Part shown: positions 11,710-26,280 of the stretch, piece after piece
How the letters are laid out: every line of letters begins with the position of its first letter
How positions within the stretch are numbered: position 1 is the stretch's first letter
Source: Candidatus Methanoperedens sp.
Lineage (GTDB): Archaea > Halobacteriota > Methanosarcinia > Methanosarcinales > Methanoperedenaceae
Length of the DNA stretch: 32,000 nucleotides
Reading direction: 5' to 3'
Assembly: GCA_041494705.1 (NCBI GenBank)
Contig: JBGQBI010000002.1
Coordinates: 90,001-122,000, forward strand
Notes under the pieces: generated by a model
The model's database searches: none
What the model was told of the DNA's origin: nothing
The model's input: only the letters and a program-made list of their open reading frames with translations
Made by a program: the position numbers and the translations under genes

Positions 11710-12468
11710 CTATATACCCAGTATAGAATAGATAAAATCGCCATAGAATGCAGCCGCGAAAAACCCTACTGTTATGGAAATCATAAACGGCAAGCCGGGG
11801 GTCACCCAGACCTCATCTTTAATTATACCCAGTTCTTCCAGATTCTTAAGCTCTTTGATTGTTTTCTCGTTAATTTCCACGCCGCCCGGCTTGAAACGGA
11901 ATTGATTCTTACCATCTGCCACTTCAAAATCCTGGATTAACCTGATATGTTTATTTGCAAGCTCTGAAATTTTAGTTTTATAACCTATGAAAATATATAC
12001 GGGATTATCAATATGCCAGCCCATTTTCGTTATATTAAATACTGCTAACCCGATGGGGACAATAATCGTCAACAGGGCTGCGTTGCCAAATACGCTGAGT
12101 GTGAAAATATCATACAGAGGTTTATTCAATGGAAGGGCATAGCCGAATGCCTGGAACGCCGGATAGGCAGGAAGGATTATCGACAGGACGATAAGAGATT
12201 TAGCGTCAGCCCCGCCGAATAAACCTAATTGAAAAGTGACATACACAAGCATGAACATGAATCCTGCCGAGATGAATAAGGTAAGGAGATATGATATGCC
12301 GTACTTTGAGGTATCATAAAGGATAAAAAAAATGCTGCCAGCAAGCATTACCAGCCACACTTTGTTGGTTACGCTGCGCTTTTTAATATCCGAATAACAT
12401 GCGTAAAGCAGAAACGGCGTGCAGAATAAAATCTTTAAAATATCGAGCATGCTCTTTTCCAGGGTCAA
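11710..12468 (-). CDS. Archaeal prepilin/preflagellin peptidase (peptidase family A24, FlaK/PibD/EppA-like)
   Basis: 252-aa polytopic protein with the two A24 aspartate motifs (CYSDIKKR and FGGADAKS) and a soluble insertion before the last TM helices. Confidence 0.85.
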   Translation of the reverse strand: MTLEKSMLDILKILFCTPFLLYACYSDIKKRSVTNKVWLVMLAGSIFFILYDTSKYGISYLLTLFISAGFMFMLVYVTFQLGLFGGADAKSLIVLSIILPAYPAFQAFGYALPLNKPLYDIFTLSVFGNAALLTIIVPIGLAVFNITKMGWHIDNPVYIFIGYKTKISELANKHIRLIQDFEVADGKNQFRFKPGGVEINEKTIKELKNLEELGIIKDEVWVTPGLPFMISITVGFFAAAFYGDFIYSILGI

Positions 12469-12475
12469 ATAAATT

Positions 12476-12658
12476 TTATTGTTTACAGACAGGAACCTTC
12501 GCTATAATCCTGGTTTCAGGAACCCTGTCCCACCTGTTGAAACTGCTGATATAAAGTATATCCTCATTGCGGCTCCTTTCGATAAACTGGACATCTCCTT
12601 CCTGGATTTCACCAGTTTCGAGTTTGAATTTTACTATGTCTCCTGTAGAATATTCCAT
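12476..12658 (-). CDS. Hypothetical 60-aa protein
   Basis: ORF-track entry 7 nt upstream of the peptidase gene on the same strand. No family recognised. Confidence 0.3.
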   Translation of the reverse strand: MEYSTGDIVKFKLETGEIQEGDVQFIERSRNEDILYISSFNRWDRVPETRIIAKVPVCKQ

Positions 12659-12696
12659 AAATCACCGTCATTCGTTTTTATCTGATGGCTGAATTG

Positions 12697-12732
12697 AAAA
12701 AAAAAAAGTATTATGAGGATTGCTCCTCATAA
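12697..12732 (-). terminator. Hairpin plus T11 terminator downstream of the pilin-PstS1 gene
   Basis: On the minus strand, TTATGAGGA-GCAA-TCCTCATAA (9-bp perfect stem, 12711-12732) is followed after 3 nt by eleven T (12697-12707). It begins 15 nt after the stop at 12747. Confidence 0.7.
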
Positions 12733-12746
12733 TTGAGTTTGTTTAT

Positions 12747-13862
12747 TTAAGGTCTGAAGAATCCTGTCTGCTCTACGATGGTCTGCCCGTCGTTGCTCAG
12801 TACATAGTCAAAGAATGCCTTCTCTGCGCCTGTCGGGACTCCCTGGCTGTAGTAGTAGAGGTCGCGTGCAAGTCCTTTGCCACTTACAGTGGTTACAGTC
12901 CTGCTTGCTGCATCGTAGGTATTAGCGCCTATACCCTTGGTGGTCTTGCTTGCCACAGTGCCATTCATCGAGGCTGCAATGTCAGCGGCGTTTCCATTAA
13001 CTCCGCCTGCTGCAAAGCCAACATCAACGAAGCCGATCGAATTTTTATTTGCTGCAATGTAGTCTCTTACTCCCTGGTTGCCCTGTGCCCCGGTTGCAGA
13101 TGAACCTGTTAGCTGTTTGGATGTAGTATCTTGCATACCAATCCATGCTGCAAAGGTATCTTCTGTTCCTGAGTCATCTGAGCGCTGGACTGTCGTTATA
13201 TTTTTTGCAAAAGTTCCAAGTTTAGTTCCATCTATTGCACCACTTACATACCCAGCTTTCAAATCAACGAAACTTATGTTAAGGATATAATTGGTTGGAT
13301 CATAGGCGGAAGTATTGCCGGGGATAATGTTTATTGCTTTAACATTATTAGTTCCATCGTTCAAATACCCTGCAAGTACAATCATGCCTGTTCCGATTTT
13401 TGTCTCATAGAGGAACGCATTGGCTCCTGCTGCCTGTATAACTGCACTCCCTCTGCCGTCGTACGATAAGCCTGTGGTTGTGTCTGTTGATGTACTATCC
13501 GGCCAGATGTCGGAGCTTGCTCCTACATCAACCTGTTTGTTGAAGACAAGCGCCCTGCCTGTTCCTGAGCCGCCGCCGCCGAGATGGATTGTTACTGATG
13601 GATACAGCTTTTCGAACGCTGCGATTTCAGCCTGTGTTATGGGTAATACTGTAGTACTGCCTTTGATTGCGAAATCTCCTGATACGTCAAGATGCTGACT
13701 TCCCACCTGACCTTCTGTATTCTTCTGCGCATTCTGGACAATCATGCCAATGCCCGCTGCTGCCACTGCTGCAATCACGATTAAAATCAGTGTTGCAATA
13801 GCAGGGGAAATGGCTTTAGAGTCCTGAAGGAATGCTTTTATTCCTTTAGTATTTATTCTCAT
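12747..13862 (-). CDS. PstS-family (PBP_like_2) phosphate-binding protein with archaeal class III (pilin-type) signal peptide
   Basis: I prefer ATG 13862 (GGAGG 7 nt upstream) over the ORF-track start 13931. N-terminus: MRINTKGIKAFLQDSKA|ISPAIATLILIVIAAVAAAG. The body carries PstS-type signatures GSTTVLP, GGGGSGTG, VGASSD, VQRSDDSGTED. Confidence 0.8.
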   Translation of the reverse strand: MRINTKGIKAFLQDSKAISPAIATLILIVIAAVAAAGIGMIVQNAQKNTEGQVGSQHLDVSGDFAIKGSTTVLPITQAEIAAFEKLYPSVTIHLGGGGSGTGRALVFNKQVDVGASSDIWPDSTSTDTTTGLSYDGRGSAVIQAAGANAFLYETKIGTGMIVLAGYLNDGTNNVKAINIIPGNTSAYDPTNYILNISFVDLKAGYVSGAIDGTKLGTFAKNITTVQRSDDSGTEDTFAAWIGMQDTTSKQLTGSSATGAQGNQGVRDYIAANKNSIGFVDVGFAAGGVNGNAADIAASMNGTVASKTTKGIGANTYDAASRTVTTVSGKGLARDLYYYSQGVPTGAEKAFFDYVLSNDGQTIVEQTGFFRP

Positions 13863-13965
13863 TTCTATCCTCCAATTTTTGGTTCGGTGACGCCCACCGG
13901 TATTGCCCAATGTATTATCATCTATCTTCAAATCGAAGTTTGGCGGACACGGATTTATAGCATCA

Positions 13966-14516
13966 CCAGATTACCTTAATTTCATAAACTATTTCAGGAT
14001 AAGCCTCATAAACTATAGAGAGTAATATAGTCTATTTTTATTCTTCAAAACAATGAAACCGGTGCCCTCCGGTTGGGGTCTCGAAGGGGCTGGGGGCACC
14101 GATTCATGGTTAATGAAGCCCTGCACCAGGGTAAAAAAAGTGAGATATGTTAAGGGCTTCATGTTTCTCCTACGGGTTGTGATTTAGCGGCGTGTGTATA
14201 GGCCGCCAGATTACTCTAATATCAGAAACTATTTCAGGATAATCCTCATAAACTATATAGAGCCATATAGTCTATTTTTTATTCTACGGGAGATGAAACC
14301 GGTGCCCATGATAGGTTCTTGAAGGCGGTTGTTGGGGCACCGTTTCATGGTTAATGAAGCCCTGCACTGAGGAAAAAAAGTACGAGATATTATGGGCTTC
14401 ATATTTCTCCTCTGTTTTTGGGCTCATCTGCTGTTTGAGCCACGGCCTATCCTAATATCAGGAACTATTTCAGGATAATCCTCATAAACTATATAGAGCC
14501 ATGTAGTCTATTTTTG
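13966..14516. repeat. Tandem repeat, period 240 bp, 2.3 copies (A 13966-14205, B 14206-14445, partial C 14446-14516)
   Basis: Each unit starts with a promoter-like A/T segment of about 64 nt (ctaatatcagRaactatttcaggataatcctcataaactatatagagccatRtagtctattttt). Copies B and C differ at 2 positions there. Copies A and B then carry two conserved inverted repeats: atgaaaccggtgccc...gggcaccgWttcat and atgaagccc...gggcttcat. Confidence 0.85.
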
Positions 14517-14565
14517 AAACTTTTTAATTTTTTCTGGGTAAATGAATCCAGATAAGGATAATCGA

Positions 14566-14635: not shown

Positions 14636-14683
14636 CAAACCAGAAGATAATAAAAAGTCTCCTATTTTTATCATGGGGAATAA

Positions 14684-15557: not shown

Positions 15558-15992
15558 CTAACATTTTTTCTGCAAAATCGCCCATCCTGATAAAAATATA
15601 GCCATCATAATCGTTATTGCTGAAATTGCAAGGATAGCATTGGAGTAGGCTGCGTTCTTGAAATACCATGAAAAACCGCCAAAAGTATGTGCCAGTGAGA
15701 GCAGGATAAGTATGGCTGATGCAGGATAAAAGAGCTTTTCATCCCGGGAGAGCATTTTCAGGACAAAGTATGAAGCGGCAAAGGAGAAAATCACAGTAAA
15801 CACAAAGTAAGGTATCAATAAGTCGTGCCTGACTGCATATACCAGCAGCGGGCTGAATTCGTTCTGCACCAGGTTCTCCTTCGTGCCTGAAAGCCAGATG
15901 GTAAAAGAGTAGTCTATAATTGCCGACATTGCAAAAAAGAAAGGTACGGCTATCAGCAGCTTCCCTGGAATATCATTCTTTAACACCATCAA
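15558..15992 (-). CDS. Hypothetical 4-TM membrane protein
   Basis: 144 aa with four hydrophobic segments. It lies directly downstream of the pilin-PstS2 gene on the same strand. Confidence 0.5.
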   Translation of the reverse strand: MMVLKNDIPGKLLIAVPFFFAMSAIIDYSFTIWLSGTKENLVQNEFSPLLVYAVRHDLLIPYFVFTVIFSFAASYFVLKMLSRDEKLFYPASAILILLSLAHTFGGFSWYFKNAAYSNAILAISAITIMMAIFLSGWAILQKKC

Positions 15993-16040: not shown

Positions 16041-16994
16041 CTAATTAAATTCCCTCGTATAGCTTATGTATCCATTCTTCTCTATAATATCCTGTCCTTC
16101 AAATGACCTCGCCCACTTTATGAAGGAATCCACAAGTGAGGGATTACCTCTGGTTACAAAGTAGAGCGGATGGGCAAGCTCTAAGGGATAATAGGAATTG
16201 TTCACGTCACTGCTGGCGGCTGCCACCGTAAAATTGGAGTGGCTCATGTTTGTATATGTTACCCCGCTGTCTTCATTATAGAGATTTGCTATATTCACGC
16301 TCTGTCCACGTTTATCCTGGGAATCAACATAACCGTATTCTATAAATCCTATAGAACCGGGCATATTTTTCACAGCATCAAGCATCCCGGCGCTGCCTGT
16401 AACCGCAGTAATGCTTGAGTTGATTGAAGTATTTCCGATATACTGCAAAAATGCTCTCTCTGTGCCTGGAGAACCTGTCATTTGATATGCTGTGCATGTC
16501 TTATTTGTGTCATCGTAGCATCCTCGTAGTGTACTTTTACTAAAGTTGCCGACCGGGCCATTGACTATAATCACAATTCCCGAAGTGCCAAGCTTTTGAG
16601 CAACGAGGTCCGGGTATTTTCCCATCTCATCCGGAGAAGGCAATCTATCTGTGACTCCTATATCTGCTATGCCGGTACCCACCTCACCAATGGAAACATT
16701 CGAAGTCATATTCAATGCCGCACTCGCTTGTAACTGGAGCATCACGCCGAGACTTTTATCATTATAAGCATTCACCAGAGGTAAAATGGCAGGGTAGGCA
16801 AGGTCTGAACTTATGATATTTATCTTTATAGATGTACGATCTGCACTGTTACTCTTGCCTGCTACCTTATCGGTCTGGGAGTTCATATTCTGCATCATGC
16901 CAGAGAGAAATGTCACGCTTCCAGCCACCACCATGATAAGCATCAGAGAGGCGACCACCGGGGATACTGCATTTGTGTCTTTAATAATCTTCAT
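16041..16994 (-). CDS. Divergent PstS/PBP_like_2-fold protein with class III (pilin-type) signal peptide
   Basis: 317 aa. N-terminus: MKIIKDTNA|VSPVVASLMLIMVVAG. The body aligns by eye to the PBP_like_2 layout (IADIGVTDRLPSPDEM, GIVIIVNG, TGSPGTERAFLQYIG, IGFIEYGYV). The canonical GST/GSGxG anion-binding motifs are replaced (ISSDLAYP, QASAAL). Confidence 0.7.
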   Translation of the reverse strand: MKIIKDTNAVSPVVASLMLIMVVAGSVTFLSGMMQNMNSQTDKVAGKSNSADRTSIKINIISSDLAYPAILPLVNAYNDKSLGVMLQLQASAALNMTSNVSIGEVGTGIADIGVTDRLPSPDEMGKYPDLVAQKLGTSGIVIIVNGPVGNFSKSTLRGCYDDTNKTCTAYQMTGSPGTERAFLQYIGNTSINSSITAVTGSAGMLDAVKNMPGSIGFIEYGYVDSQDKRGQSVNIANLYNEDSGVTYTNMSHSNFTVAAASSDVNNSYYPLELAHPLYFVTRGNPSLVDSFIKWARSFEGQDIIEKNGYISYTREFN

Positions 16995-17103: not shown

Positions 17104-18474
17104 TCAGTCACCTCCCGAATAGGCGGGCATGTTGCCGGTAGCCGTTTGTCCTGACGTCTTCCCTGAGAGCCCCAATATTTTCAGGAGTTTCGTTGGAAGG
17201 TTTTTCAGTTCTGCCATTAGCGATTCGTAGAACGCTGGCGTGTCAGAAGTATTTTTGGATTTTTCGATTGGGGGAGCGGGAGAAGTCTCAGCAGGGGCGA
17301 TATGAACTTCCGTGGGAACAGCCTTTGCAAATGTTATCTGTACAGGATTTGATATGCCTGAACCTGTAATAGCTTGCGTTTTTCCTTCGGGGTCGTAGCA
17401 TGACCTGTACTCATCAAATGTGAAGTTAGCCGGAGGCAGTGAGATATTACCAGATAGATTATTTATTTTTAATACATAACTCTGATTATAAGACGTCTCT
17501 GGTTGCAGGACAATGCTGAAATTCCGATCACCGCGAAGCATCTCCATACCAGGAACAAAAGAATCCCATACTTTTACCGAAGCTGCCCTGCTCCCGTTGT
17601 TTTTTACGCTCAAGTTTATCGTAACATTGCCTTCCTTCTCCATATCAACGGTTTTTGATAAAATAATATCAGAAGAGCGTAAAATGAAACTTAGATTGCC
17701 GGTGGATAAATTATATGTTTTATTATACCTGCCTATGTAAAGCATTGCAGGTGGCAGGCTGTATTCCGCTCCCGCGACTGGCTTAAGAGGCTTGATTTTA
17801 TAGGCGGTCTGCCACATCTCACCGCTGTGCAGGGATATGCTCCACTTCAAATCATGTGGTTCTGATACAAAACCGTCTCCAACACTGTCTCCCACCCCGA
17901 TATTCGAAAAATTTAAATTTCCAATGCTTTCAACAGTTATTGTAATAGGGATGAACTGGTTGCAAGGATTTATATTAGCCTCTGCGGGCACGGTCTTGGT
18001 GATCGTCAGGTTTTTTGCAATATCAAAATCACTTTCATTCATTTTTATCAGTATTTTAAGCTCTGCATAAGGCGTGGGTATGTGATAACCTGTGACAACA
18101 TCCTGCGCAATTATCCTGAGTGAGCTTTCATCATCTTCATATGAGGTTTCATTAAAAAAATCGGCGCCGTCGATGGTAATGTTTTTCTCTGCTAACACAG
18201 CGTCCAGTATATGATTACTATCCTTGTATATCTTTAAAAATACCCAGTCATCACACCCAAAAATTCGCCTATTAACGCCATCGGTTTCAGTTTTACATTT
18301 TTCTGGATTTTCTTCTACGGTTCCGGGCCTGAAATCCACCGCTGTTATATTATAATTGTAAAAACTGACGCTTTCACCCCAATTGAGACGTACATCATGT
18401 TCTTCCCAGTCAGATGCCGCTCCTGCCACTGCCAATATATTCAGCCCGATAATAAGCAACAGAATAGCCCTCAT
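17104..18474 (-). CDS. Secreted, sequon-rich cell-surface protein (beta-sandwich/CARDB- or DUF11-like segment)
   Basis: I prefer ATG 18474 (MRAILLLIIGLNILAVAGAAS..., Sec-type signal peptide). The ORF-track start 18552 would overlap the upstream gene. About 18 N-x-S/T sequons by eye. The segment ILSKTVDMEKEGNVTINLSVKNNGSRAASVKVWDSFVPG looks CARDB/DUF11-like. Confidence 0.65.
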   Translation of the reverse strand: MRAILLLIIGLNILAVAGAASDWEEHDVRLNWGESVSFYNYNITAVDFRPGTVEENPEKCKTETDGVNRRIFGCDDWVFLKIYKDSNHILDAVLAEKNITIDGADFFNETSYEDDESSLRIIAQDVVTGYHIPTPYAELKILIKMNESDFDIAKNLTITKTVPAEANINPCNQFIPITITVESIGNLNFSNIGVGDSVGDGFVSEPHDLKWSISLHSGEMWQTAYKIKPLKPVAGAEYSLPPAMLYIGRYNKTYNLSTGNLSFILRSSDIILSKTVDMEKEGNVTINLSVKNNGSRAASVKVWDSFVPGMEMLRGDRNFSIVLQPETSYNQSYVLKINNLSGNISLPPANFTFDEYRSCYDPEGKTQAITGSGISNPVQITFAKAVPTEVHIAPAETSPAPPIEKSKNTSDTPAFYESLMAELKNLPTKLLKILGLSGKTSGQTATGNMPAYSGGD

Positions 18475-18529
18475 TGTCTGAAAATAGAATAAAGCCCTAT
18501 TAGGTTTTTTTGTATATAGTGTATATAAT

Positions 18530-19540
18530 CTATATACTTTTAGAGAAGTCAATGGCTAACTCAGCGATGTTTGCAGCATAATCCCCGATTCTTTTCACGC
18601 TGTCTGCTATGAGCCCTAAGGACATGACAGCGTCAGGACTTAAAGTGGTTGCCTGGTTTCTGACTATATGCAAATCCTCGCCTATTTTTTTATGTTCTTC
18701 AATAACCCTGTTTGCAAGCTCTACATTGCATTTTGTAAAAGAAACAACCGAATCATTGACGAGTTTATGTGATATGGTACAAATCTTAACGATCTCATCG
18801 AGCATGCCTTGAGGAATTTTTTCACCTGATTCCAGTATTATACCGGCGATCTTACCCGCATGGTCTGACATACGCTCTAAATGGTCGCTTGCCAGCCTGT
18901 AGTAGAAGGCTCCTATCAACCCCAGTTCACTCTTTTCTGATATCCTTGAATGGAGTAAAATATCCATGAACTGTTTTGATATCAATAGATGGAGGCGGTC
19001 AATCTCATCATCCTGCCTTACGACTTCAGAGGCAATGGAAACTTCCTTCGTTTTCATTGCCTTGATGGTGTTGTCAAGCATCCACTGCACTTTTATATGC
19101 ATGCGCCGAAAGCTCATATCGATAGGCATATCTCCCGGATTCAAGATATCCTGAATAACTATTCTCTCGTGCGTTTCATCGATGATTTCAATGCCTATCA
19201 ATTTTTTGACGATAGCTGTTATATCTTTTTTCTGCTCATGTGTGATATTTTTGGCTTTAAGTTCAATCACACGATACCCGGCAACGTAGGTGGCTATTAT
19301 ATCTCTTATCAGCGGCTCGCCCACCCTTCCATCTATGGTTAAGGTCTTTGGACCCTGAGGCGCAAAACTGCCGTTTGAAGTTAAAAGAAGAGTACCATCC
19401 TCCTGCGGATGCATGTGAACAAGGGAACCGGCGGTTATCCCGGTACTGACAGCCCATTTCTTGGGAAGAGAGACGACATATGTCGATTTCCCTGTTATCT
19501 GGACTTTTCTTATTTCTGCGTTTGTCTTTTTAATTTTCAT
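18530..19540 (-). CDS. AbrB/SpoVT-domain plus PhoU-domain transcriptional regulator (paralog 1)
   Basis: 336 aa. The N-terminal looped-hinge-helix-type segment is RKVQITGKSTYVVSLPKKWAVSTGITAGSLVHMH. The C-terminal part has two PhoU repeats (DDEIDRLH...LERMSDHAGKIA and IGEDLH...VKRIGDYAANIAE). Confidence 0.85.
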   Translation of the reverse strand: MKIKKTNAEIRKVQITGKSTYVVSLPKKWAVSTGITAGSLVHMHPQEDGTLLLTSNGSFAPQGPKTLTIDGRVGEPLIRDIIATYVAGYRVIELKAKNITHEQKKDITAIVKKLIGIEIIDETHERIVIQDILNPGDMPIDMSFRRMHIKVQWMLDNTIKAMKTKEVSIASEVVRQDDEIDRLHLLISKQFMDILLHSRISEKSELGLIGAFYYRLASDHLERMSDHAGKIAGIILESGEKIPQGMLDEIVKICTISHKLVNDSVVSFTKCNVELANRVIEEHKKIGEDLHIVRNQATTLSPDAVMSLGLIADSVKRIGDYAANIAELAIDFSKSI

Positions 19541-19575
19541 ATCTCTACATAGTTTTTCCGATGAGGATATATATG

Positions 19576-19616
19576 TTCTCCCAAGAATCTATATAATATA
19601 TATAAAATCAGTAAAT
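19576..19616. promoter_or_regulatory. Copy d of the recurrent intergenic motif, upstream of AbrB-PhoU paralog 1
   Basis: ttctcccaagaatctatataatatatataaaatcagtaaat. It is 38/41 identical to the pstS copy and lies 36 nt upstream of ATG 19540. Confidence 0.6.
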
Positions 19617-19648
19617 CCTGTTTTAATTTTATTATTTTGAAAAAAATA

Positions 19649-19669
19649 GTCTATATTTTCTATATAGAC
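19649..19669. promoter_or_regulatory. Inverted repeat GTCTATAT-N5-ATATAGAC in the promoter region of the secretion ATPase operon
   Basis: gtctatat tttct atatagac, about 40-60 nt upstream of ATG 19708. It contains a TATA-like CTATATAG and shares ATATAGAC with the pstS motif copy. Confidence 0.45.
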
Positions 19670-19707
19670 AAATTATTAATTTAATTCACACATTTCACAC
19701 ACTTAGA

Positions 19708-21519
19708 ATGAAAACATTGATTGAAGGCTTTAATCTTGGCAGTTTATCTCATTATCCAAAACGCATTGGCGGGTATCTTTCTCCAAGCCGCATAAAAGGT
19801 TATCCAAAACTCATTGGTGGGTATCTTTTTCCAGGCCGCATCATAGATGGAAATGGCAACGGGAATAAACAGAATGGGAATGATGGGCTTGAAGTGCATC
19901 TTAAGCAACTTGAGGAACAAATACTGGGCAGGCGGGAGGAGAGTAAACAAAATATCATGGACATACTTCACTCCTTCAAAGAAAAACCCATCCGTGAATT
20001 AAACATAACCTATCCGATCAACCCGCCTTACCAGTTTGTCCAAATCGCGTTTGATAGTGATACCGAAGAACTCCTGTACATGCCGCTTGAGCCTGTTCTT
20101 GACAAAGCAGAGAAGGAACTCTTCCAGAGAATAAAAGGTATCTTTGAGAAAGAGTTGAATAGGGAGAGCTTGCAGGCTAACCAACAGATATACATCGAAA
20201 AGAGGGCAGCAGAAATTATTGACACATACAGCATAAACGCAGGCAAGACTGCCCTGGATAAAGCGCTTTATTTTCTCAAGAGGGATTTCATCGGTTATGG
20301 TGAGATAGACCTGCTGATGAACGACCCCATGATAGAAGATATAAGCTGCAATGGCCCCGGCAGACCTATTTACTTGTATCACCGCGTCTTTGAATCCCTG
20401 CGGACAAAGATGAAGTTTGAAAGCGAATACAGGTTAAATTCTTTTATATTAAAGATGGCGCAAATTTCAGGGAGGCATATATCGGTGCTTGACCCCATAA
20501 CAGACGCCACCTTACCTGACGGCAGCAGGGTTAACCTCACCTACAGCAACGAAGTGACCAGGAAAGGCTCATCCTTCACTATCCGGCGGTTCAAGAGCGA
20601 GCCTATCTCCTTTATAGATATAATGAAATACGGTACCTTAAATGCTAAGCAGCTTGCCTACCTGTGGTTGCTGGTGGAGTACGGCAAGTCAATACTGGTC
20701 TCGGGCGGCACCGCCTCAGGGAAAACAACACTATTAAACGGCATCTGCCTTTTCATAAAACCCGAGGCAAAGATTGTGAGCCTCGAAGATACAGCAGAGA
20801 TAAATATACCCCACGATAACTGGATACAATCCATAACAAGGAGCGGTTTTGGAAGGGGGGAGGGGTCTTCCAAACGCGGGGATATCGGTCTATATGAACT
20901 GTTAACCGCAGCACTGCGGCAGCGTCCAGAGTACATAATAGTTGGAGAAGTCAGGGGGGCAGAGGCAAGCACACTCTTTCAGGCAATCTCAGTCGGTCAT
21001 GCCGCTATGGGTACAATACATGCAAGCTCCGTGGAAGAACTCATTAATCGCATTGAATCACCGCCTATGAACGTTCCTCGCAGCCAGCTTGCAAGTCTTG
21101 ATCTTGCGATATTTATAAACAGAATCCGTATTAACAACAGCTATGCCAGGCGGATTGTGAACATGGTGGAGATACATGGGATTGATTCCGGGACAAAGAA
21201 TCTCGTCACGAATAATGTTTTCCATTGGGATCCTTTTAGCGACTCTTTCAACTACAAAGGCAAAAGCTCTCTCCTGGAAGATATAGCCAGTGAACACGGA
21301 ATCAAACTTGAATACTTAGAGAAGGAGATGGAACTGAGGGAGAAGGTGATTGAGTGGATGTCCAGACAGGGAATTATCCATTACAGGGATGTGGCAAAAA
21401 CCCTCAAGGCATATTACAATTCTCCTGATGAACTCATGAAAAAAATAATAATTCTAAAAGAAGTAATGCCAAAAAAAGCACGCAAGCCGAGGGCCTTAAA
21501 GTCTGGTAAAAAACGCTAA
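19708..21519 (+). CDS. FlaI/PilB/GspE-family type IV pilus-like secretion ATPase
   Basis: 603 aa. Walker A GGTASGKTTLLNG, Asp box/Walker B RQRPEYIIVGEVRGAEA, His box TIHASS. It also has the archaeal N-terminal domain pattern YPINPPYQFVQI...YMPLEPVL. An alternative internal start is ATG 19957. Confidence 0.9.
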   Translation: MKTLIEGFNLGSLSHYPKRIGGYLSPSRIKGYPKLIGGYLFPGRIIDGNGNGNKQNGNDGLEVHLKQLEEQILGRREESKQNIMDILHSFKEKPIRELNITYPINPPYQFVQIAFDSDTEELLYMPLEPVLDKAEKELFQRIKGIFEKELNRESLQANQQIYIEKRAAEIIDTYSINAGKTALDKALYFLKRDFIGYGEIDLLMNDPMIEDISCNGPGRPIYLYHRVFESLRTKMKFESEYRLNSFILKMAQISGRHISVLDPITDATLPDGSRVNLTYSNEVTRKGSSFTIRRFKSEPISFIDIMKYGTLNAKQLAYLWLLVEYGKSILVSGGTASGKTTLLNGICLFIKPEAKIVSLEDTAEINIPHDNWIQSITRSGFGRGEGSSKRGDIGLYELLTAALRQRPEYIIVGEVRGAEASTLFQAISVGHAAMGTIHASSVEELINRIESPPMNVPRSQLASLDLAIFINRIRINNSYARRIVNMVEIHGIDSGTKNLVTNNVFHWDPFSDSFNYKGKSSLLEDIASEHGIKLEYLEKEMELREKVIEWMSRQGIIHYRDVAKTLKAYYNSPDELMKKIIILKEVMPKKARKPRALKSGKKR

Positions 21520-21522
21520 ACT

Positions 21523-22383
21523 ATGAATACATTATACAAGAAGTTATGCTACCGCATGGTGGGGAGATACATAGAAGGAAGCAGCCTGGAAACTGAATTC
21601 TCAACGCTCCTTTACCAGGCAGAAATTAAAATGAGCGGAAACATGTTTCTCTCAGTCTTGTTAACAAGTTCTCTCATACTATCCCTCGCCGTCGGAGGTG
21701 TTTTTTACATTCTTTCCATCGAACTGGTTCCTCCTCTTTTTGCTGCTCTACTGGCTTTTGCCGCCCCCGCAGGGGTTATTTATTTCCAGCTCACCTCAAA
21801 AATCCAGAACAGGCGTCTTGCCATTGACAGCAATCTACCTTTTGCTATCAGCCATATGTCTATACTGGCATCGATAGGGACAACACCCCTGAATCTCTTG
21901 CGTATGGTTGCTTCTGCCGACCACGGCGAAGTTTCAGCCGAGCTAAAAAAAATTCTCTATTCTGTGGATACGCTGGGCAAGGATGTTATAGCTGCTGTCC
22001 TGGAAGTTGCAAGAACTACCCCTTCTCCGCACATGCGCTCCCTGCTCATAGAAATTACAAGGATGATACACACTGGCGGCGGCATGGAAGCATACCTGCA
22101 CAACAGGCTTGACCAGCTCCTGGAAATAAAACGGCAGGTGCAAAAAGAACTCAACCAGTCCCTTGCCCTCTTCAGCGAGATGTATATTACATTCATAAGC
22201 ACGGGTGTTATTATGGCCGTGCTTGGTGTAACTGTGGGGAGCATTCTCATGGGAGGGAAGATAGGACCGTTCCAGGCAAGCGATCTCTTTAGCATATTCG
22301 TATATTTTATTATGCCTGTAACAAATGTTCTATTCTTTGTACTTCTGATGATGGTATATTCGCCTCACGGGGAGCAGAAATGA
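21523..22383 (+). CDS. T2SS-F domain membrane platform protein (FlaJ/TadB-like), first half-size gene
   Basis: 286 aa. It has N-terminal TM helices, then a cytoplasmic helical domain, then C-terminal TM helices. It starts 3 nt after the ATPase stop. Confidence 0.75.
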   Translation: MNTLYKKLCYRMVGRYIEGSSLETEFSTLLYQAEIKMSGNMFLSVLLTSSLILSLAVGGVFYILSIELVPPLFAALLAFAAPAGVIYFQLTSKIQNRRLAIDSNLPFAISHMSILASIGTTPLNLLRMVASADHGEVSAELKKILYSVDTLGKDVIAAVLEVARTTPSPHMRSLLIEITRMIHTGGGMEAYLHNRLDQLLEIKRQVQKELNQSLALFSEMYITFISTGVIMAVLGVTVGSILMGGKIGPFQASDLFSIFVYFIMPVTNVLFFVLLMMVYSPHGEQK

Positions 22384-23363
22384 GAGATTTAAAAAAAATA
22401 TATAACAAATATAACTTAAAAAGAGAACACATTATCCTGCTGCTTCCGGCATTGATAGCAGTAATCTTAATCGTGATTAGCATACTCCCTGCTGTACTCC
22501 CTGCAGGACAGGAAAAACAAGAATATATTTACACACCAGTAGAAGGCAACACAACAGATGTAGTACCAATCACAAATGATCATGGGGTGCCCAAAAATCT
22601 TGACCAGATTATAGTATTTGCTGTCTTGATAGCGATAACGCCTTACAGCATAGAGGTTTATCTTATCAAGAAAAGGACAACGAGATACGAGGAGGAGTAT
22701 ATCGGCTTTCTATACGAGTTCTCTGAACTCCTGCGCGGCGGTCTTGACCCTCTGGGCGCTATAAAGGAGATTGCTTCTCCCGCTTTAGAGACAGAACGCA
22801 GTCTGCAAGCCCTCAGTCCTCACTTAAAAAAAGCTGCAGCACAGATAGAGTGGGGCGTTTCTTTTGAAACGGTTATTGCCAGCATGGCAGAGTCCCTGAA
22901 AAGCCCGCTGCTTAGCAAATATAGCAAACTCATCGTCCAGGCATCGAGACTTGGTGCAATGAGCCCGGCTATCATTCTAAAATGTGCAGATGATCTTGAA
23001 AAAACCCTCCAACTGGAGCATGAAAAGGAAGCTGCCCTAAAGGAATACCTTTTCATAATCTATGCAGCACAATTCATCCTTATCGGCTTGATATTTCTCC
23101 TTAACACCACTCTTCTTCCTTCAGTCCTCAGCATGTTTGGGACGGGAGTGGGGGGGAAAGGTTCACCTCTTGGCATCGCGGCTCCTTCAATAAGTCTTGC
23201 CGGCTTTAAGACCGGTTTTTTCCATGTGATAATGATTAACGCCTTCGCAAGTGGCATCATCGCAGGACAGCTCACTGCGGGTAAGGCGAGGCATGGATTA
23301 AGCCATTCGGTTATATTGATTTTAATAAGCTATACCGCCAGCCTTACATTTCTGCTGAAGTAA
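22380..23363 (+). CDS. T2SS-F domain membrane platform protein (FlaJ/TadC-like), second half-size gene
   Basis: 327 aa with the same TM-soluble-TM layout. ATGA overlap with the previous gene. Confidence 0.7.
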   Translation: MRDLKKIYNKYNLKREHIILLLPALIAVILIVISILPAVLPAGQEKQEYIYTPVEGNTTDVVPITNDHGVPKNLDQIIVFAVLIAITPYSIEVYLIKKRTTRYEEEYIGFLYEFSELLRGGLDPLGAIKEIASPALETERSLQALSPHLKKAAAQIEWGVSFETVIASMAESLKSPLLSKYSKLIVQASRLGAMSPAIILKCADDLEKTLQLEHEKEAALKEYLFIIYAAQFILIGLIFLLNTTLLPSVLSMFGTGVGGKGSPLGIAAPSISLAGFKTGFFHVIMINAFASGIIAGQLTAGKARHGLSHSVILILISYTASLTFLLK

Positions 23364-23370
23364 TAAAAAA

Positions 23371-24231
23371 TTATTTACAACTTTTCGCAATTATAGGCAT
23401 ACCGGCATTGCATGCCTTGGATAAGGCATCATCCATGTTTTTAAGCAGCGCCCTTGGATTCCCGTGGACTTTTGAATTTAAGCTGTATACAAACTCTCTG
23501 GTGAAAGGAAAAAGGAAGTCCATATTCTGAACAGACCTGCTTACTGCGAGCCTCTTTGCGACCAGAAGCTCGGCTTCTTTATCCTCAAGTCCATCCAGCA
23601 TATAAAGCTTGTTTATCCGCTCTATGAAAGAAGGATTTGTTTCCCGGATGCCTTTGAAAATTTCTTTATTGCAGGTAAAACAGAGCAAGCTTCCAGCCTT
23701 CAGGTTGTTCACAAGGGCGGTGAGGAATTCCATGAAATTATTATCCCCGCAATCAATGTTGTCCAGCAAAATATAGGATGGTTTCTGCTCTTTTAGCATC
23801 ATTGATGCCAGTATCCCAAGCTCGACTGGCTCTTTTTTCTGTTTTAATGATTTTTTTATTTCTTTAACATATTGAGGAGGCCGAAGCCTCCCCATAAAAC
23901 CCATCTTACCATATATCTGTTTCAGCCCGCTATCGAATAAACTCTTTATATTCAATGCGTAGTTGCGCTCAACACCTAAAAAAATATGGAAAATACCGCT
24001 TTTAACTGCTACCTCCTCAAGCCATCGCAGCCTCTGGGTTTTTCCAATACCCAGTTCTCCTACAAAAGCCACCACAGCCCTTCCTCCCTCCGATAACTCC
24101 CCAACTATACCTGCCAATTCACTGTCCATCTTCTGGTTCACATGCAATAAGTAGATACCCCCTATCGCCTCAGCCGATACCTCCCGAAAAGGATTCGAAT
24201 TCAAACCATATAGCTTATATTCATTCGTCAT
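23371..24231 (-). CDS. ExeA/GspA-like AAA (AAA_22-type) P-loop ATPase
   Basis: 286 aa. The N-terminal YGLNSNPF is followed by Walker A GELGIGKTQ, Walker B YILLDNID and a C-terminal GNPRALL. This arrangement is reminiscent of ExeA/ORC-type ATPases. By eye. Confidence 0.55.
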   Translation of the reverse strand: MTNEYKLYGLNSNPFREVSAEAIGGIYLLHVNQKMDSELAGIVGELSEGGRAVVAFVGELGIGKTQRLRWLEEVAVKSGIFHIFLGVERNYALNIKSLFDSGLKQIYGKMGFMGRLRPPQYVKEIKKSLKQKKEPVELGILASMMLKEQKPSYILLDNIDCGDNNFMEFLTALVNNLKAGSLLCFTCNKEIFKGIRETNPSFIERINKLYMLDGLEDKEAELLVAKRLAVSRSVQNMDFLFPFTREFVYSLNSKVHGNPRALLKNMDDALSKACNAGMPIIAKSCK

Positions 24232-24387
24232 CTTCGTATCTCTGCCATATTTATACCGTTCTTCTCTACTGAAATGCTATCATGCAGGAGCTTTTAGAAC
24301 GGTTAATTAATTAACCCCTATAGTCTAAATACATCTATATACTCTATAATAGGATGCTTTATTGGGTCGAAGGGAAAAAAGTAACGT

Positions 24388-25146
24388 GTGAAGCTGCTTG
24401 AAGATGAGTCCGGGCTATCTGTAATAGTTGGAACACTGCTGTTGATACTTATCGTGGTAGCTTCGGCATCTGCCCTTGCTCTCATGGTGAACGAAGCACA
24501 GAAAAAAGAGATGGAGCAGAGGAGCCTTCGCGCTGCTGTGGAAAGTGAGAACTTAAAGATTCTTTCGTTGGCTCTCAATGATTCGGATGGCGACGGATAC
24601 TGGAATACCATGATGATAACTGTTGTGAATCTGAATACCGAGGAATCACGGATTGTTAGCGTCAATATTAATGACATGAATGCAGCAAACTACACAGATG
24701 AAGTAAAATTATACAATTTCCAGAACCAATTCCCTGTACCATCCGCAAGAAGCAGGCAGATATTCTTGAACCTTACCTCCAACTTTACCTCCCGTCTTAA
24801 CATTTCCAAGAATGATCCCATCCGGGTAATCCTGTTTACCAGCCTGACAAACAATTTTGAGCGTGTCTTTCTACCACCTGTGCCCATCATAAAAGTGAAT
24901 GTTGGATCTGAACAAATTGGAGCGTTCTATGATGTGCTCACCCTGGACGGTTCGGATTCTTTTGACCGTGAAGGCACGATTATCAAATACCAGTGGTTGG
25001 TCAGCAATGGCACAATTCTGGGCACTCCAAGCGGACAGAAAGCGAGGATGAATTTCAACCTGAGCAACACAGGTAAGTTCCAGGTCAACCTTAACGTGAC
25101 AGACAGCAACGGGATGTTGGGTTCTACCGGTTGGGAATCTCCATAA
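24388..25146 (+). CDS. Pilin-like protein (class III signal peptide) with C-terminal PKD domain
   Basis: GTG start. N-terminus: MKLLEDESG|LSVIVGTLLLILIVVASASALA. The C-terminal LTLDGSDSFDREGTIIKYQW...GKFQVNLNVTDSNG matches the PKD-domain pattern. Confidence 0.7.
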   Translation: MKLLEDESGLSVIVGTLLLILIVVASASALALMVNEAQKKEMEQRSLRAAVESENLKILSLALNDSDGDGYWNTMMITVVNLNTEESRIVSVNINDMNAANYTDEVKLYNFQNQFPVPSARSRQIFLNLTSNFTSRLNISKNDPIRVILFTSLTNNFERVFLPPVPIIKVNVGSEQIGAFYDVLTLDGSDSFDREGTIIKYQWLVSNGTILGTPSGQKARMNFNLSNTGKFQVNLNVTDSNGMLGSTGWESP

Positions 25147-25206
25147 AATCAGACCTGCAAATCTCCTTTATTTTCGATGATTCTAATTATAAAAGGTATA
25201 CATTTC

Positions 25207-25246
25207 ATTCCAAATAATCTATATATACTATAAAATATCAGTAGAT
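25207..25246. promoter_or_regulatory. Copy e of the recurrent intergenic motif, abutting the start of AbrB-PhoU paralog 2
   Basis: attccaaataatctatatatactataaaatatcagtagat. It has the same plus-strand orientation as copies a-d, but here the adjacent gene is on the plus strand. It has a 2-nt insertion in the AAAATCAGTA arm. Confidence 0.55.
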
Positions 25247-26280
25247 TGAAGATAAATATGGAAGCGCGGAAAGTTTACGTAAGCGGCGGTTCGACCTATG
25301 TAATGTCACTGCCCAAAAAATGGGTTAAGAAGACTAACCTGAAGCCGGGAGACTCACTGGTGGTTACGGAACATGGCAGTTCATTGCTGATTGAGACCAG
25401 TGTTATTGAAAAAGAGTCGCAGGTAAAGGAGATTAAAATCTCACAAATAACATCAAGCGAAGCACTTGAACGTATATTAATTGCTTTTTATCTGGTGGGT
25501 TATGATACAATCAAGATAAAGCTTGACAGGAAGGATCATCTTGCATACCGGGAGAGCATACGGAAGATTCTGGACTATTTGATAGGCGTGGAACTAGTCG
25601 AGGATACCAACGAAGCAATGACGCTTGAGATAATGCTGGATTACAAACGTATGAACACCATACAGATACTCCAGAGAATGTTTTCCATAGACAGGTCGAT
25701 GCTTCTTGATTTAGGCAAAGCTTTGAAAACTACTGATATCGGGCTGGCAAAGGATGTAATCGTGAGGGAGCGGGAAATTGACAGGCTTTATTTTTTGGTG
25801 GTGAGGCAGCTCAAAAGCGCTGTTGAGTACCAGCAGGTAGCTGAAAAGCTCGGGATAGAAAACCAGAGGGATTGTCTTGGATACAGGATTACTGTAAAGG
25901 CTCTCGAGCGGATTGCAGACCATATTGAAAACATAGCAAAGAGCTATATTCAATTATCAGACATCCAGAAAGATATGCCATTGAATGATTTTATAAAACT
26001 CAATAACAGTATAATTGTAATTTTCGAAAAATCGGTAGATGCATTATTTACAAGAAATCATGTATTGGCCGAGAAAATTTTTCAGGAACTAAAGGAAATT
26101 AATGAATTTCATTCTGCTATTTCAAATGAATTACTCCAATCAAAAGATAAAAATATAGAATCCGCTATCCTGCAAAAAACGATGCTTGACAGTTTTGGGA
26201 GAATAGGAAGTTACAGCGGGGATATTGCTGAGATAGCTATTAATATGTCTGCCGGCACCCTGACGTTTGATAAACCATAA
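25246..26280 (+). CDS. AbrB/SpoVT-domain plus PhoU-domain transcriptional regulator (paralog 2)
   Basis: 344 aa from TTG 25246 (MKIN..., compare MKIK... in paralog 1). The alternative start is ATG 25258. RKVYVSGGSTYVMSLPKKWV is the AbrB-like segment. The PhoU repeats are REREIDRLY...LERIADHIENIAK and ...FGRIGSYSGDIAEIA. Confidence 0.85.
   Translation: MKINMEARKVYVSGGSTYVMSLPKKWVKKTNLKPGDSLVVTEHGSSLLIETSVIEKESQVKEIKISQITSSEALERILIAFYLVGYDTIKIKLDRKDHLAYRESIRKILDYLIGVELVEDTNEAMTLEIMLDYKRMNTIQILQRMFSIDRSMLLDLGKALKTTDIGLAKDVIVREREIDRLYFLVVRQLKSAVEYQQVAEKLGIENQRDCLGYRITVKALERIADHIENIAKSYIQLSDIQKDMPLNDFIKLNNSIIVIFEKSVDALFTRNHVLAEKIFQELKEINEFHSAISNELLQSKDKNIESAILQKTMLDSFGRIGSYSGDIAEIAINMSAGTLTFDKP

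Follow-up and report, generated by a model that had tools for sequence, protein, structure and literature searches.

A predicted type IV pilus-like system embedded in the phosphate regulon of Candidatus Methanoperedens

Gene content of the phosphate island

The window is a 32,000-nt stretch of DNA from Candidatus Methanoperedens sp., an uncultured methane-cycling archaeon, and the features discussed here are summarized in Table 1. The canonical pst operon adjoins a set of pilus-assembly genes (the module), as the original prediction had it, and its PstS carries a lipobox N-terminus (LVAGC) that can be read from the sequence. The island genes between the two include PsiE (8190-8597) and a 367-aa protein for which no Pfam match is on record, and they are syntenic with Methanoperedens loci. 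Genes for tRNA and metabolism also lie near the module.

Table 1. Features of the phosphate island and pilus module, with positions in the window.
Feature	Position	Strand	Evidence
Canonical pstS-pstC-pstA-pstB-phoU operon	2739..7068	-	Pfam PBP_like_2 1e-41, BPD_transp_1 x2, ABC_tran, PhoU
38-nt promoter block upstream of pstS, including palindrome TCTATATAGA	7115..7152	-	
AP_endonuc_2 TIM-barrel, PsiE, 367-aa protein, PHP phosphoesterase, LMW phosphatase/ArsC-like	7206..11654	-	
Class III signal (prepilin) peptidase, 5-TM FlaK/PibD type	11710..12468	-	Peptidase_A24 4e-14, Arc_PepC_II 2.5e-25
Pilin-PstS1, class III N-terminus (KA|ISPAIATLILIVIAAVAAAG) then PstS domain	12747..13862	-	PBP_like_2 3e-16
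Pilin-PstS1 conserved leader/promoter with 2.3 tandem copies of a 240-nt repeat	13863..14515	-	
Small conserved membrane protein, 4 transmembrane segments	15558..15992	-	By inspection
Pilin-PstS2, class III N-terminus (NA|VSPVVASLMLIMVVAG) then PstS-like domain, degenerate ligand site	16041..16994	-	
Secreted DUF11-like protein	17104..18552	-	Weak DUF11 match
AbrB/SpoVT-PhoU regulator 1	18530..19540	-	PhoU 8e-27, MazE/AbrB-type N-terminal domain
Divergent promoter region: pstS-like 38-nt block (19576-19613), palindrome (19659-19668)	19541..19707	.	
PilB/FlaI-family assembly ATPase	19708..21519	+	T2SSE 1.8e-37; Walker A (GGTASGKTT) intact
Split PilC/TadC platform, two T2SSF genes	21523..23363	+	T2SSF 3.9e-12 and 5.1e-11
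P-loop NTPase-like protein	23371..24231	-	Weak AAA_16 match
Conventional archaeal pilin (PKD pilin), class III N-terminus (SG|LSVIVGTLLLILIVV)	24388..25146	+	PKD_4 7e-7
AbrB/SpoVT-PhoU regulator 2	25246..26280	+	PhoU 2e-25, MazE_antitoxin 1.4e-8

Two AbrB-PhoU regulators flank the machine as predicted, and the first, next to the ATPase gene, is conserved across clades. The proposed sharing of promoter motifs between pstS and the module is also borne out: the 38-nt block of the pstS promoter recurs with 3 mismatches in the ATPase/AbrB-PhoU intergenic region (chance expectation, 0 matches), and the palindrome TCTATATAG has 10 strand matches against 0.44 expected. Other genomes also keep this palindrome upstream of their pilin-PstS genes. 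Every copy of the 240-nt repeat contains a CTATATAG-type motif, which is exact in two copies.

Assembly machine, binding proteins and pilin

The A24 peptidase, the PilB-like ATPase, the split PilC platform and one canonical pilin give the module the full set of core type IV pilus-like (TFF) parts. The profile matches of the peptidase are joined by both catalytic Asp motifs (SDIKKR and GGADAK), in agreement with its original assignment. Its gene adjoins that of pilin-PstS1 in 5 Methanoperedens loci; the enzyme is tied to the module in Methanoperedenaceae only, and perhaps serves the whole cell as a general prepilin peptidase. The ATPase gene and the two T2SS-F genes are tightly coupled, as had been noted, with a 3-nt gap before the first platform gene (21523-22383) and a 4-nt overlap between this and the second (22380-23363). 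The best NCBIfam model for the ATPase is FlaI, at 455 bits and below the cutoff of 550. As claimed from the outset, neither archaellum accessory genes nor small standalone pilin genes are found in the window.

The three class III N-termini (KA|, NA| and SG|) are exactly as earlier quoted, and Pilin_N (PF07790) is the best Pfam match for all three proteins, at sub-threshold E values of 0.008-0.014. A FlaFind-like six-frame scan of the window returned pilin-PstS1, pilin-PstS2 and one false positive (a C-terminal transmembrane segment), and missed the third protein, whose position -2 is Ser. The N-terminus of pilin-PstS1 is almost invariant among ~60 homologs. Its AF2 model (pLDDT 85) has only PstS proteins among the top 40 Foldseek PDB matches, and the phosphate-site motifs GSTT, GGGSG and R-x3-SGT are kept. 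The N-terminal helix of the model is short (~26 residues), of low confidence and followed by a linker, and unlike a classical pilin helix it is not packed on the globular domain, so that it could be a plain membrane anchor. Neither Pfam nor a search of PDB sequences gave a match for pilin-PstS2. The TIGR02136 match spans the whole protein (3e-11, under the cutoff of that model), and a Methanohalophilus pilin-PstS that is a PBP_like_2 protein shares 30% identity with it. Motif comparison shows that pilin-PstS2 has lost the canonical phosphate-binding residues. The original PBP_like_2/PstS assignment is secure for pilin-PstS1 by Pfam, fold and binding motifs, and reaches pilin-PstS2 solely through the sub-cutoff NCBIfam match and the homolog chain.

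Two of the three class III proteins are PstS-like, as predicted, and the third is of ordinary archaeal pilin type, with a 46-residue N-terminal helix along with Ig-like and PKD domains. It scores 19.6 bits against TIGR02537 (cutoff 20), its AF2 model (pLDDT 87) matches Pyrobaculum pilin 8fk7 at a Foldseek TM of 0.75 and both the Aap pilin and an archaellin at 0.59, and its homologs are named 'pilin N-terminal domain' proteins. The presence of this conventional pilin means that the PstS proteins are probably not the sole substrates of the module. The pilin of one relative bears a GH16 domain, showing that the family is able to display varied functional domains.

Among the remaining proteins, the small membrane protein has orthologs that occupy the corresponding place in Methanoperedens loci, in Methanohalophilus and in metagenome loci. 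The DUF11-like protein, which may belong to the envelope or to an adhesin, is kept in the module, and its counterparts in Methanohalophilus and ANME-2c also match DUF11. Loci of types A, C and D hold orthologs of the P-loop NTPase-like protein, which fills the regulator slot held by a KaiC-like ATPase in relatives; no KaiC homolog is found in the window.

Phosphate genes and the ATPase clade

A neighbour-joining tree of 89 related ATPases, rooted at the midpoint, allowed us to compare gene neighbourhoods between clades. Among loci of at least 8 kb, which are related and non-independent, Pst/PhoU genes are present in 33 of 41 in-clade loci and 0 of 10 sister-clade loci (Fisher p = 3e-6, with an out-group of ten loci only). 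The linkage is specific to one ATPase clade, where the gene arrangements number at least five and span Methanoperedenaceae, Methanosarcinaceae, ANME-2c, Methanoregula and Thermoplasmatota. Synteny of the module extends to 4/4 Methanoperedens loci having enough flank. In our window the PstCAB genes lie 5 kb off; in Methanosarcinaceae, ANME-2c, Methanoregula and Thermoplasmatota they belong to the same operon. For Methanohalophilus, Methanolobus and ANME-2c the operon order is pilin-PstS-PstC-PstA-T2SSE-T2SSF-T2SSF, with a 1-nt gap or 8-nt overlap at the pstA/pilB junction, and a purple-acid-phosphatase-domain protein adjoins the ANME-2c module.

Almost all linked PstS genes encode pilin-like N-termini, whereas canonical pstS genes encode lipoproteins with a lipobox. 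The motif (K/R/E/N)(A/G)|(V/I)SP..A..L is found on ~30 linked PstS genes, and orthophosphate-site motifs are kept in pilin-PstS1 and most linked PstS proteins. Orthologous ATPase/platform operons in relatives consistently go with pilin-type PstS, PstC/PstA and PhoU-type regulators, a pattern that spans Methanosarcinales, Methanoregula and Thermoplasmatota. This clade-wide pairing strongly supports the original prediction of a phosphate-linked bindosome or PstS-decorated pilus.

Related systems and interpretation

Much like the bindosome of Sulfolobus/Saccharolobus solfataricus, with its BasEF ATPase/platform, BasABC pilin-like proteins and PibD-processed GlcS, AraS and TreS, the module combines class III signal peptides on ABC-transporter binding proteins with a dedicated PilB/PilC pair and a prepilin peptidase, and the proposed purpose of better substrate scavenging is the same (PMC4371748; 10.64898/2026.04.22.720090). 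The substrates differ, being sugars in Sulfolobus and phosphate here, as do the hosts, which here are Euryarchaeota (Halobacteriota, Thermoplasmatota) and not Sulfolobales. A large Ig/PKD pilin stands in place of small BasABC-type pilins, and dedicated PhoU-type regulators are present. Binding-protein genes lie in or beside the pilus locus here, and in one operon with permease genes in relatives, whereas those of Sulfolobus are found at ABC loci far from it. Bas orthology was rejected, the ATPase scoring 226 bits against the BasE model (cutoff 1000) and the platform 32 bits against BasF (cutoff 1300). The term 'bindosome-like' fits as a way of working but not as membership, given scores far below those for BasE/BasF and the lack of BasABC-like small pilins.

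By description only, the module can be placed in the euryarchaeal clade 2 type IV pili of Makarova, Koonin and Albers (2016), known from Haloferax volcanii PilB3/PilB4-type loci (PMC4858521). Shared traits are a FlaI-like ATPase with two tadC-like genes, KaiC-family or P-loop ATPases in the locus (Methanomicrobia), a FlaFind-positive Ig-like pilin of variable length (250-550 aa, arCOG02911 description) and an S-layer-like accessory protein (PMC4858521). The main text of that census mentions neither phosphate nor PhoU, ABC transporters or permeases, and the present ATPase clade differs in being defined by linkage to pilin-type PstS, PstCA and AbrB-PhoU. For class III binding proteins, Sivabalasarma and Albers (bioRxiv 2026) have put forward a 'functionalised TFF' hypothesis. 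They state that the usual genomic neighbours of these proteins are ABC transporters and not TFF clusters; their main text contains 'phosphate', 'PstS' and 'PhoU' 0 times each and names no phosphate system. Here, by contrast, a dedicated machine, its cargo and its regulators occur together at one locus. To our knowledge, the PstS of Pseudomonas aeruginosa surface appendages has no pilin-type N-terminus, and we know of no genetic link between it and a type IV pilus machine. In multidrug-resistant strains with these PstS-rich appendages, PstS is likewise reported on extracellular appendage-like structures, but the system is bacterial and is described as acting in adhesion and virulence (Zaborina et al. 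2008, PMC2242829).

One possible, though rather unlikely, explanation is a co-regulated adhesion or biofilm pilus built of the PKD pilin only and switched on with the phosphate regulon. The shared peptidase would cut the PstS N-termini, leaving a helix that tethers ordinary PstCA(B) binding proteins to the membrane independently of the ATPase. Such a pilus is consistent with a PKD protein that is a complete canonical pilin of a family found in nearly every related locus, with the short, low-confidence pilin-PstS1 helix and its linker, and with reviews noting that, outside Sulfolobales, the class III sites of binding proteins are unconfirmed predictions (PMC3387779). It leaves unexplained why the pilin-type N-terminus is specific to PstS linked to this ATPase clade when canonical PstS is a lipoprotein, why pstC, pstA and pilB are so closely coupled in one operon, and why a degenerate PstS2 is conserved in the operon divergent from the ATPase.

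That last protein, which is 72-76% identical among Methanoperedens loci although its ligand residues are lost, could instead point to a pilus that scavenges phosphorus in polymeric or mineral form. PstS-like domains, chiefly PstS2, would then be adhesins, at the tip or in the shaft, for surfaces or polymers that bear phosphate (e.g. minerals, extracellular DNA, polyphosphate) and not carriers of free orthophosphate. The phosphoesterase-type genes of the island (PHP, AP_endonuc_2, LMW phosphatase), the ANME-2c purple-acid-phosphatase-domain protein and the GH16-bearing pilin agree with this idea, but we regard it as improbable: most linked PstS proteins, pilin-PstS1 among them, retain orthophosphate-site motifs, PstC/PstA permeases in the same operon argue for free phosphate import, and a nucleic-acid-binding or mineral-binding domain was not detected. 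Least credible, and already disfavoured, is a chance neighbourhood in which a housekeeping pilus locus sits beside phosphate genes without functional link. Nearby tRNA and metabolic genes, with a general peptidase, do show the region to be not exclusively phosphate-related; chance fits poorly with a linkage repeated across several orders and phyla and not seen in the sister ATPase clade, and with the promoter block common to the module and pstS.

We consider it reasonably probable that the locus encodes a phosphate-regulon-embedded TFF system dedicated to phosphate acquisition, and the best reading of the module is that of a euryarchaeal type IV pilus in a phosphate-dedicated variant. Under phosphate limitation, the AbrB-PhoU regulators would de-repress the divergent operons, and the peptidase would cut short leaders at KA|IS, NA|VS and SG|LS. 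The ATPase and platform would then draw the hydrophobic N-terminal helices out of the membrane and polymerise them as a short pilus or pseudopilus, with the PKD pilin, probably together with the degenerate PstS2, as scaffold. Phosphate-binding PstS1 would be displayed on this scaffold at or beyond the S-layer and pass captured phosphate to PstCAB. The original proposal of PstS proteins as substrates is retained in this scheme but not their exclusivity, as the PKD pilin would be assembled too. Of the two PstS-like proteins, one has lost its phosphate-binding residues. We found no paper describing a phosphate-dedicated euryarchaeal type IV pilus, and the recurrent pairing across several archaeal lineages points to an undescribed pilus-based route of phosphate capture.

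Gene content and assembly machinery

A gene map built from the ORF list and Pfam/NCBIfam scans recovered every element listed in the original prediction, each at its predicted position (see table). The window (GC ~43%) is archaeal sequence, identical sequence lies within a metagenome contig of 2.07 Mb (JGI 3300053059) and likewise in GCA_041489935.1, and the nearest relatives are Candidatus Methanoperedens/Methanoperedenaceae MAGs. The pst operon and PsiE are within ~5 kb of the module.

Features of the window and of relatives' loci. Positions refer to the window unless a relative's locus (L-number) is named.
Feature	Position	Strand	Remark
kdpA		-	
phoU-pstB-pstA-pstC-pstS	2739-7068	-	canonical PstS with lipobox
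38-nt block, upstream of pstS	7115-7152		
AP_endonuc_2 protein		-	
PsiE		-	
367-aa protein		-	unannotated
PHP phosphoesterase		-	
LMW phosphatase/ArsC-like protein	11232-11654	-	CTGNSCRS motif
A24 prepilin peptidase	11710-12468	-	
Pilin-PstS1	12747-13862	-	
Pilin-PstS1 leader	13863-13975	-	~110 nt
240-nt repeat copies	13966-14039, 14206-14279, 14442-14515		within 13966-14515
Spacer between pilin-PstS1 and small membrane protein			1.6 kb, rich in repeats
Inverted repeat	14552-14644		long, near-perfect
Small membrane protein	15558-15992	-	
Pilin-PstS2	16041-16994	-	
DUF11-like secreted protein	17104-18552	-	
AbrB-PhoU regulator 1	18530-19540	-	
38-nt block, second occurrence	19576-19613		ATPase/AbrB-PhoU1 intergenic
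PilB/FlaI-type ATPase	19708-21519	+	divergent from minus-strand genes
T2SSF platform genes, two	21523-23363	+	
P-loop protein	23371-24231	-	
Class III PKD protein	24388-25146	+	
AbrB-PhoU regulator 2	25246-26280	+	
tRNA	26540-26640	+	
S-adenosylhomocysteine hydrolase	27961-29217; L016 19607-20863		
Shortened-segment PstS1 homologs	L007 9856-10902; L100 3947-5173; L101 2743-3969		also homologs P0057-P0060
Pilin-PstS-PstC-PstA units without PstB	L012 4044-8818; L013 6930-12190; L016 7104-11914; L017 491-5043		
PKD-pilin ortholog with GH16 domain	L014 6789-8396		
Kelch/purple-acid-phosphatase protein	L016 1-2828		

The predicted FlaI/PilB-family ATPase matches T2SSE (Pfam, 1.8e-37), and its two translationally coupled platform genes match T2SSF (3.9e-12 and 5.1e-11). 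The best NCBIfam model for the ATPase is FlaI, whose score of 455 bits misses the equivalog cutoff of 550, and the BasE model scores only 226 bits (cutoff 1000). These scores set the protein apart from archaellum motors and from Bas orthologs alike; the platform reaches only 31.8 bits with BasF (cutoff 1300). The peptidase matches Peptidase_A24 and Arc_PepC_II, with both Asp motifs readable. The three class III N-termini read as originally described, KA↓ISPAIATLILIVIAAVAAAG (pilin-PstS1), NA↓VSPVVASLMLIMVVAG (pilin-PstS2) and SG↓LSVIVGTLLLILIVV (PKD protein), and Pilin_N is the best Pfam match for all three, yet under threshold. Further class III ORFs and small pilins were found in the window neither among the listed ORFs of at least 30 aa nor by a six-frame FlaFind-like scan, which is heuristic only since its regex overlooked the PKD protein (Ser at -2). 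A KaiC homolog is also absent from the window, its slot being filled by a different P-loop protein. The module holds a complete TFF parts list.

Several neighboring features accompany the module. An LMW phosphatase/ArsC-type gene adjoins it also in Methanoperedens, Methanolobus and a Thermoplasmatota locus, and the product may deal with arsenate imported through the Pst system. An S-adenosylhomocysteine hydrolase gene comes after the module in the window and also in an ANME-2c locus (L016), which suggests old synteny. The sole real match of an Rfam scan of 11000-27500 was a tRNA (49.8 bits over 101 nt); ARAGORN made no call there, and the gene is probably an intron-containing archaeal tRNA. 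Rfam matches to miRNA and bglG at 14527-14653 were dismissed as sub-threshold noise out of a hairpin, the inverted repeat cacagagagcacagagg... being the source of the spurious miRNA matches.

PstS-like proteins and a conventional pilin

The original prediction assigned a PstS fold to two of the class III proteins. For pilin-PstS1 this assignment holds by Pfam, fold and binding motifs: PBP_like_2 scores 60.4 bits, above the Pfam cutoff of 27, while TIGR02136 gives 85 bits, under its cutoff of 206.6. The AlphaFold model (pLDDT 85, residues 60-371 at high confidence) has a type II periplasmic binding protein fold, and the top 40 PDB matches in Foldseek are all phosphate-binding proteins, with E-values down to 5.5e-16. 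The ligand motifs GSTT, GGGSG and R-x3-SGT are retained in pilin-PstS1 and in most linked homologs.

For pilin-PstS2 the assignment holds in weaker form. Neither Pfam nor a PDB sequence search returned a match, and the case is based on a sub-cutoff NCBIfam match (TIGR02136 end to end, 3e-11, 42.9 bits) and a chain of homologs that includes a Methanohalophilus PBP_like_2 protein at 30% identity. Its ligand motifs are degenerate (SSDL, QASAAL, QMTGSPGT). Taken together, the profile and homology matches and the decayed motifs indicate a PstS-derived protein that has probably lost canonical phosphate binding.

Close homologs of pilin-PstS1 number ~70, essentially all from Methanoperedenaceae-like MAGs, with a nearly invariant N-terminal segment, (V/I)SPAIATLILIV(I/V)AAVAAA. 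One subgroup keeps 'KAISPAI' and has the hydrophobic segment shortened to ~14 residues, ending AGAEP. In locus L007 such a homolog adjoins pstSCAB, with no pilus ATPase gene within 10 kb; the shortening could mean that pilin character is lost along with the machine, as far as these short contigs show.

The originally claimed absence of small standalone pilin genes holds. One point of the original prediction is corrected: the PKD protein has archaeal pilin architecture and provides the module with a conventional pilin. Its AF2 model (pLDDT 87) comprises a helix at 8-53 (46 residues) followed by two beta domains, Ig-like and PKD. The closest structures are filament subunits, from archaeal type IV pili and one archaellum; with Foldseek scores normalised to target length, the Pyrobaculum T4P subunit 8fk7 gives TM 0.75, and 8q30 and 9eq7 each give 0.59. 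HMM scores fall just short (TIGR02537 19.6 versus a cutoff of 20; Pilin_N E 0.014), and Methanomicrobiales homologs carry the annotation archaellin/type IV pilin N-terminal domain protein. The PKD pilin stays with the module despite rearranged gene order in two relatives' loci (L006 and L014). At 53% identity, the L014 ortholog is an enzyme-bearing pilin with a GH16 glycoside hydrolase domain at its C-terminus.

Promoter motifs and phosphate linkage across lineages

The claims that the module sits beside pstSCAB-phoU, carries two AbrB-PhoU regulators and shares promoter motifs with pstS were all borne out. A 38-nt block, TACTGATTTTATATAGTCTATATAGATTCTTGGGAGAA, found upstream of pstS recurs with 3 mismatches between the ATPase and AbrB-PhoU1 genes, against a chance expectation of 0 matches. 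The palindrome TCTATATAG (TCTATATAGA) has 10 strand matches versus 0.44 expected, with sites upstream of pstS, the PHP gene, pilin-PstS2 and the ATPase, and also in the repeats upstream of pilin-PstS1. Its core CTATATAG occupies equivalent positions in other Methanoperedens loci and lies ~220 nt upstream of pilin-PstS in ANME-2c loci. The palindrome, either a putative AbrB-PhoU operator or a particular TATA-box variant, is consistent with co-regulation of the module with pstS.

The region upstream of pilin-PstS1 contains ~2.3 tandem copies of a 240-nt unit, each with a promoter-like motif of the CTATATAG type; two of these motifs are exact and the third deviates at one position. Hairpins of the repeat units fold well, one unit reaching -63 kcal/mol (z = -3.1), and in related Methanoperedens loci the motif is reiterated every 190-240 nt (e.g. 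L010 7557/7745/7985/8225). The pilin-PstS1 leader exceeds the coding sequence in nucleotide conservation across 6 loci, and database entries of homologs even include it in wrongly translated form, as 'GDAINPCPPNFELK'. For the aligned leaders RNAalifold gives a closing stem of 9 bp, GGTGATGC...GCATCACC, in which all changes are merely wobble-compatible and compensatory pairs are absent; the leader has no Rfam match.

In Methanoperedens, one gene order is kept in all four genome loci with sufficient flank: platform-platform-ATPase divergent from AbrB-PhoU, DUF11-like, pilin-PstS2, membrane protein, pilin-PstS1 and peptidase. We inspected ATPase orthologs (~50% identity) beyond the family in several lineages. 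Methanohalophilus, Methanolobus psychrophilus R15 (CP003083 359733-381922) and ANME-2c Methanogaster have an operon of pilin-type PstS-PstC-PstA-ATPase-platform-platform, in which the pstA/ATPase junction is a 1-nt gap (Methanohalophilus) or an 8-nt overlap (Methanogaster). AbrB-PhoU genes, a KaiC-like ATPase and a PKD-pilin ortholog flank the operon in Methanohalophilus and Methanolobus, the latter with additional ppk, ppk2, ppx and CHAD genes; at the Methanogaster locus the KaiC-like ATPase and pilin are present and no AbrB-PhoU gene is within reach. A protein of >1300 aa encoded just upstream of the ANME-2c module in L016 combines Kelch with purple-acid-phosphatase/Metallophos domains and could be a secreted phosphatase working alongside the module. 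Methanoregula encodes pilin-PstS-PstC-PstA a few kb upstream of the ATPase. A Thermoplasmatota MAG carries a fused PstCA gene and a PBP_like_2 gene divergent from ATPase-platform-platform, with genes for a KaiC-like protein, PhoU, PstB, a Pilin_N protein and an LMW phosphatase in the vicinity. In a MAG labelled Nitrososphaera the ATPase gene is directly preceded by one for a PhoU-domain protein of 350 aa.

Searched with an alignment of these ATPases, metagenomes yielded 80 loci. By tblastn mapping, one group is unlinked, and the phosphate-linked loci show at least five arrangements that recur. Loci of the 'type C' arrangement are high in GC. The original prediction had proposed a survey of relatives for co-occurrence of pilin-PstS genes with the ATPase/platform operon, and the result supports it. 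In a neighbor-joining tree of 89 ATPases the phosphate-linked loci form a single clade. Counting loci of at least 8 kb, PstS, PstCA, PstB or PhoU-type genes are within reach in 33 of 41 in-clade loci versus 0 of 10 in the Theionarchaea-like sister clade (Fisher p = 3e-6, for loci that are mutually related and so not independent). Arrangements this varied nevertheless speak for a phosphate linkage that has been retained repeatedly. Some 30 PstS genes in these loci all start (K/R/E/N/Q)(A/G)↓(V/I)SP(I/V/A)(I/V)A(T/S)L, unlike canonical pstS genes, which start with a lipobox. PstB is absent within 10 kb of the pilin-PstS-PstC-PstA and pilus ATPase genes in two of the arrangements (type B and E loci), which means that the nucleotide-binding subunit has to come from a gene at another site or be shared.

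Possible function and relation to known systems

PstS-family proteins with pilin-type N-termini thus occur in multiple lineages, in clade-specific linkage to phosphate import genes, and by gene neighborhood their coupling to the PilB/PilC pair appears to be a conserved genomic one. We consider it reasonably likely that the module specifies a phosphate-responsive TFF assembly with PstS1 as the capturing subunit. Under phosphate limitation the regulators would release the divergent operons, and the peptidase would trim all three precursors. ATPase and platform would then polymerise the hydrophobic helices into a short pilus or pseudopilus, scaffolded by the PKD pilin and perhaps also by the degenerate PstS2, from which PstS1 would capture phosphate and hand it over to PstCAB.

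The main competing explanation is that the PKD pilin alone is polymerised and the PstS proteins are simply anchored in the membrane by the trimmed helix. The PstS1 model, with its short, low-confidence helix followed by a linker, would suit such an anchor. This explanation, which we regard as rather unlikely, fails to account for the pstA-pilB operon junctions and for pilin-type N-termini occurring specifically alongside this ATPase clade. A pilus scavenging mineral or polymeric phosphorus is possible but weakly supported, and a coincidental neighborhood is effectively excluded by the clade-specific linkage. A bolder proposal, which we think improbable, makes the type IV machine a mechanical component of the importer, in an archaeal 'phosphate pilus' that is ancient and spans several phyla. 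The PilB-like ATPase would polymerise and depolymerise pilin-PstS, reeling loaded PstS through the S-layer to PstC/PstA, and where a PstB-less pilin-PstS-PstC-PstA unit abuts pilB, the pilus ATPase, platform and ABC permease would form one composite machine. It would be the first type IV filament system coupled to an ABC permease, by operon and function.

To our knowledge, the sugar system of Sulfolobales is the sole bindosome studied, its structure is still unresolved, and binding proteins on the pili of other archaea are a hypothesis drawn only from signal-peptide predictions. In its predicted way of working the module resembles the Sulfolobus bindosome, which reviews describe as binding proteins that hijacked pilus machinery, and shares with the Bas system ABC-transporter binding proteins (here PstS1 and PstS2) with predicted class III signal peptides. 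The label 'bindosome-like' is apt to this extent; membership of the Bas system itself is rejected, since the NCBIfam scores give no BasE/BasF orthology and no counterpart to the small pilin-like BasABC proteins was found in the window. Going by description, the module falls among the euryarchaeal pili that Makarova et al. (2016) call clade 2, and the PKD pilin fits the 250-550 aa, FlaFind-positive Ig-like pilin given for clade 2 in that paper, whose main text leaves phosphate, PhoU, ABC transporters and permeases unmentioned. Sivabalasarma and Albers (2026 preprint) propose, as a general idea, that archaeal TFF systems are functionalised by class III binding proteins, of which they count 4364, and place these proteins usually beside ABC transporters, not TFF clusters; their main text never mentions phosphate, PstS or PhoU. 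The PstS-rich appendages reported for Pseudomonas aeruginosa (PMC2242829) offer a loose bacterial analogy. The author of the original prediction was aware of no characterised phosphate-specific system, and a phosphate bindosome, PstS pilin or PhoU-pilus link is likewise undescribed in the full-text literature searched, which lies outside most subscription journals and supplementary tables and so gives absence of evidence only.

The hedged interpretation of the original prediction, a phosphate bindosome or PstS-decorated pilus, is therefore supported and strengthened by the cross-lineage evidence, with three corrections: the module includes a conventional pilin, its PstS2 is degenerate, and it is no ortholog of the Bas system. 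The module is a phosphate variant of a type IV pilus or bindosome-like system, widespread and unreported in the literature searched. It offers a genomically hard-wired test case, with machine, cargo and regulators together and in many genomes the permease too, for a single nutrient whose limitation is easily imposed, and it is present in the cultivated methanogens Methanolobus, Methanohalophilus and Methanoregula. If this is confirmed, type IV filaments would have phosphate acquisition as a further function, the archaeal PilB ATPases would include a 'phosphate' subclade that is phylogenetically coherent, and the widespread AbrB-PhoU regulators would gain a function. Confirmation would also bear on the competition for phosphorus by methane-cycling archaea, including the methane-oxidising ANME-2, in sediments and peat.
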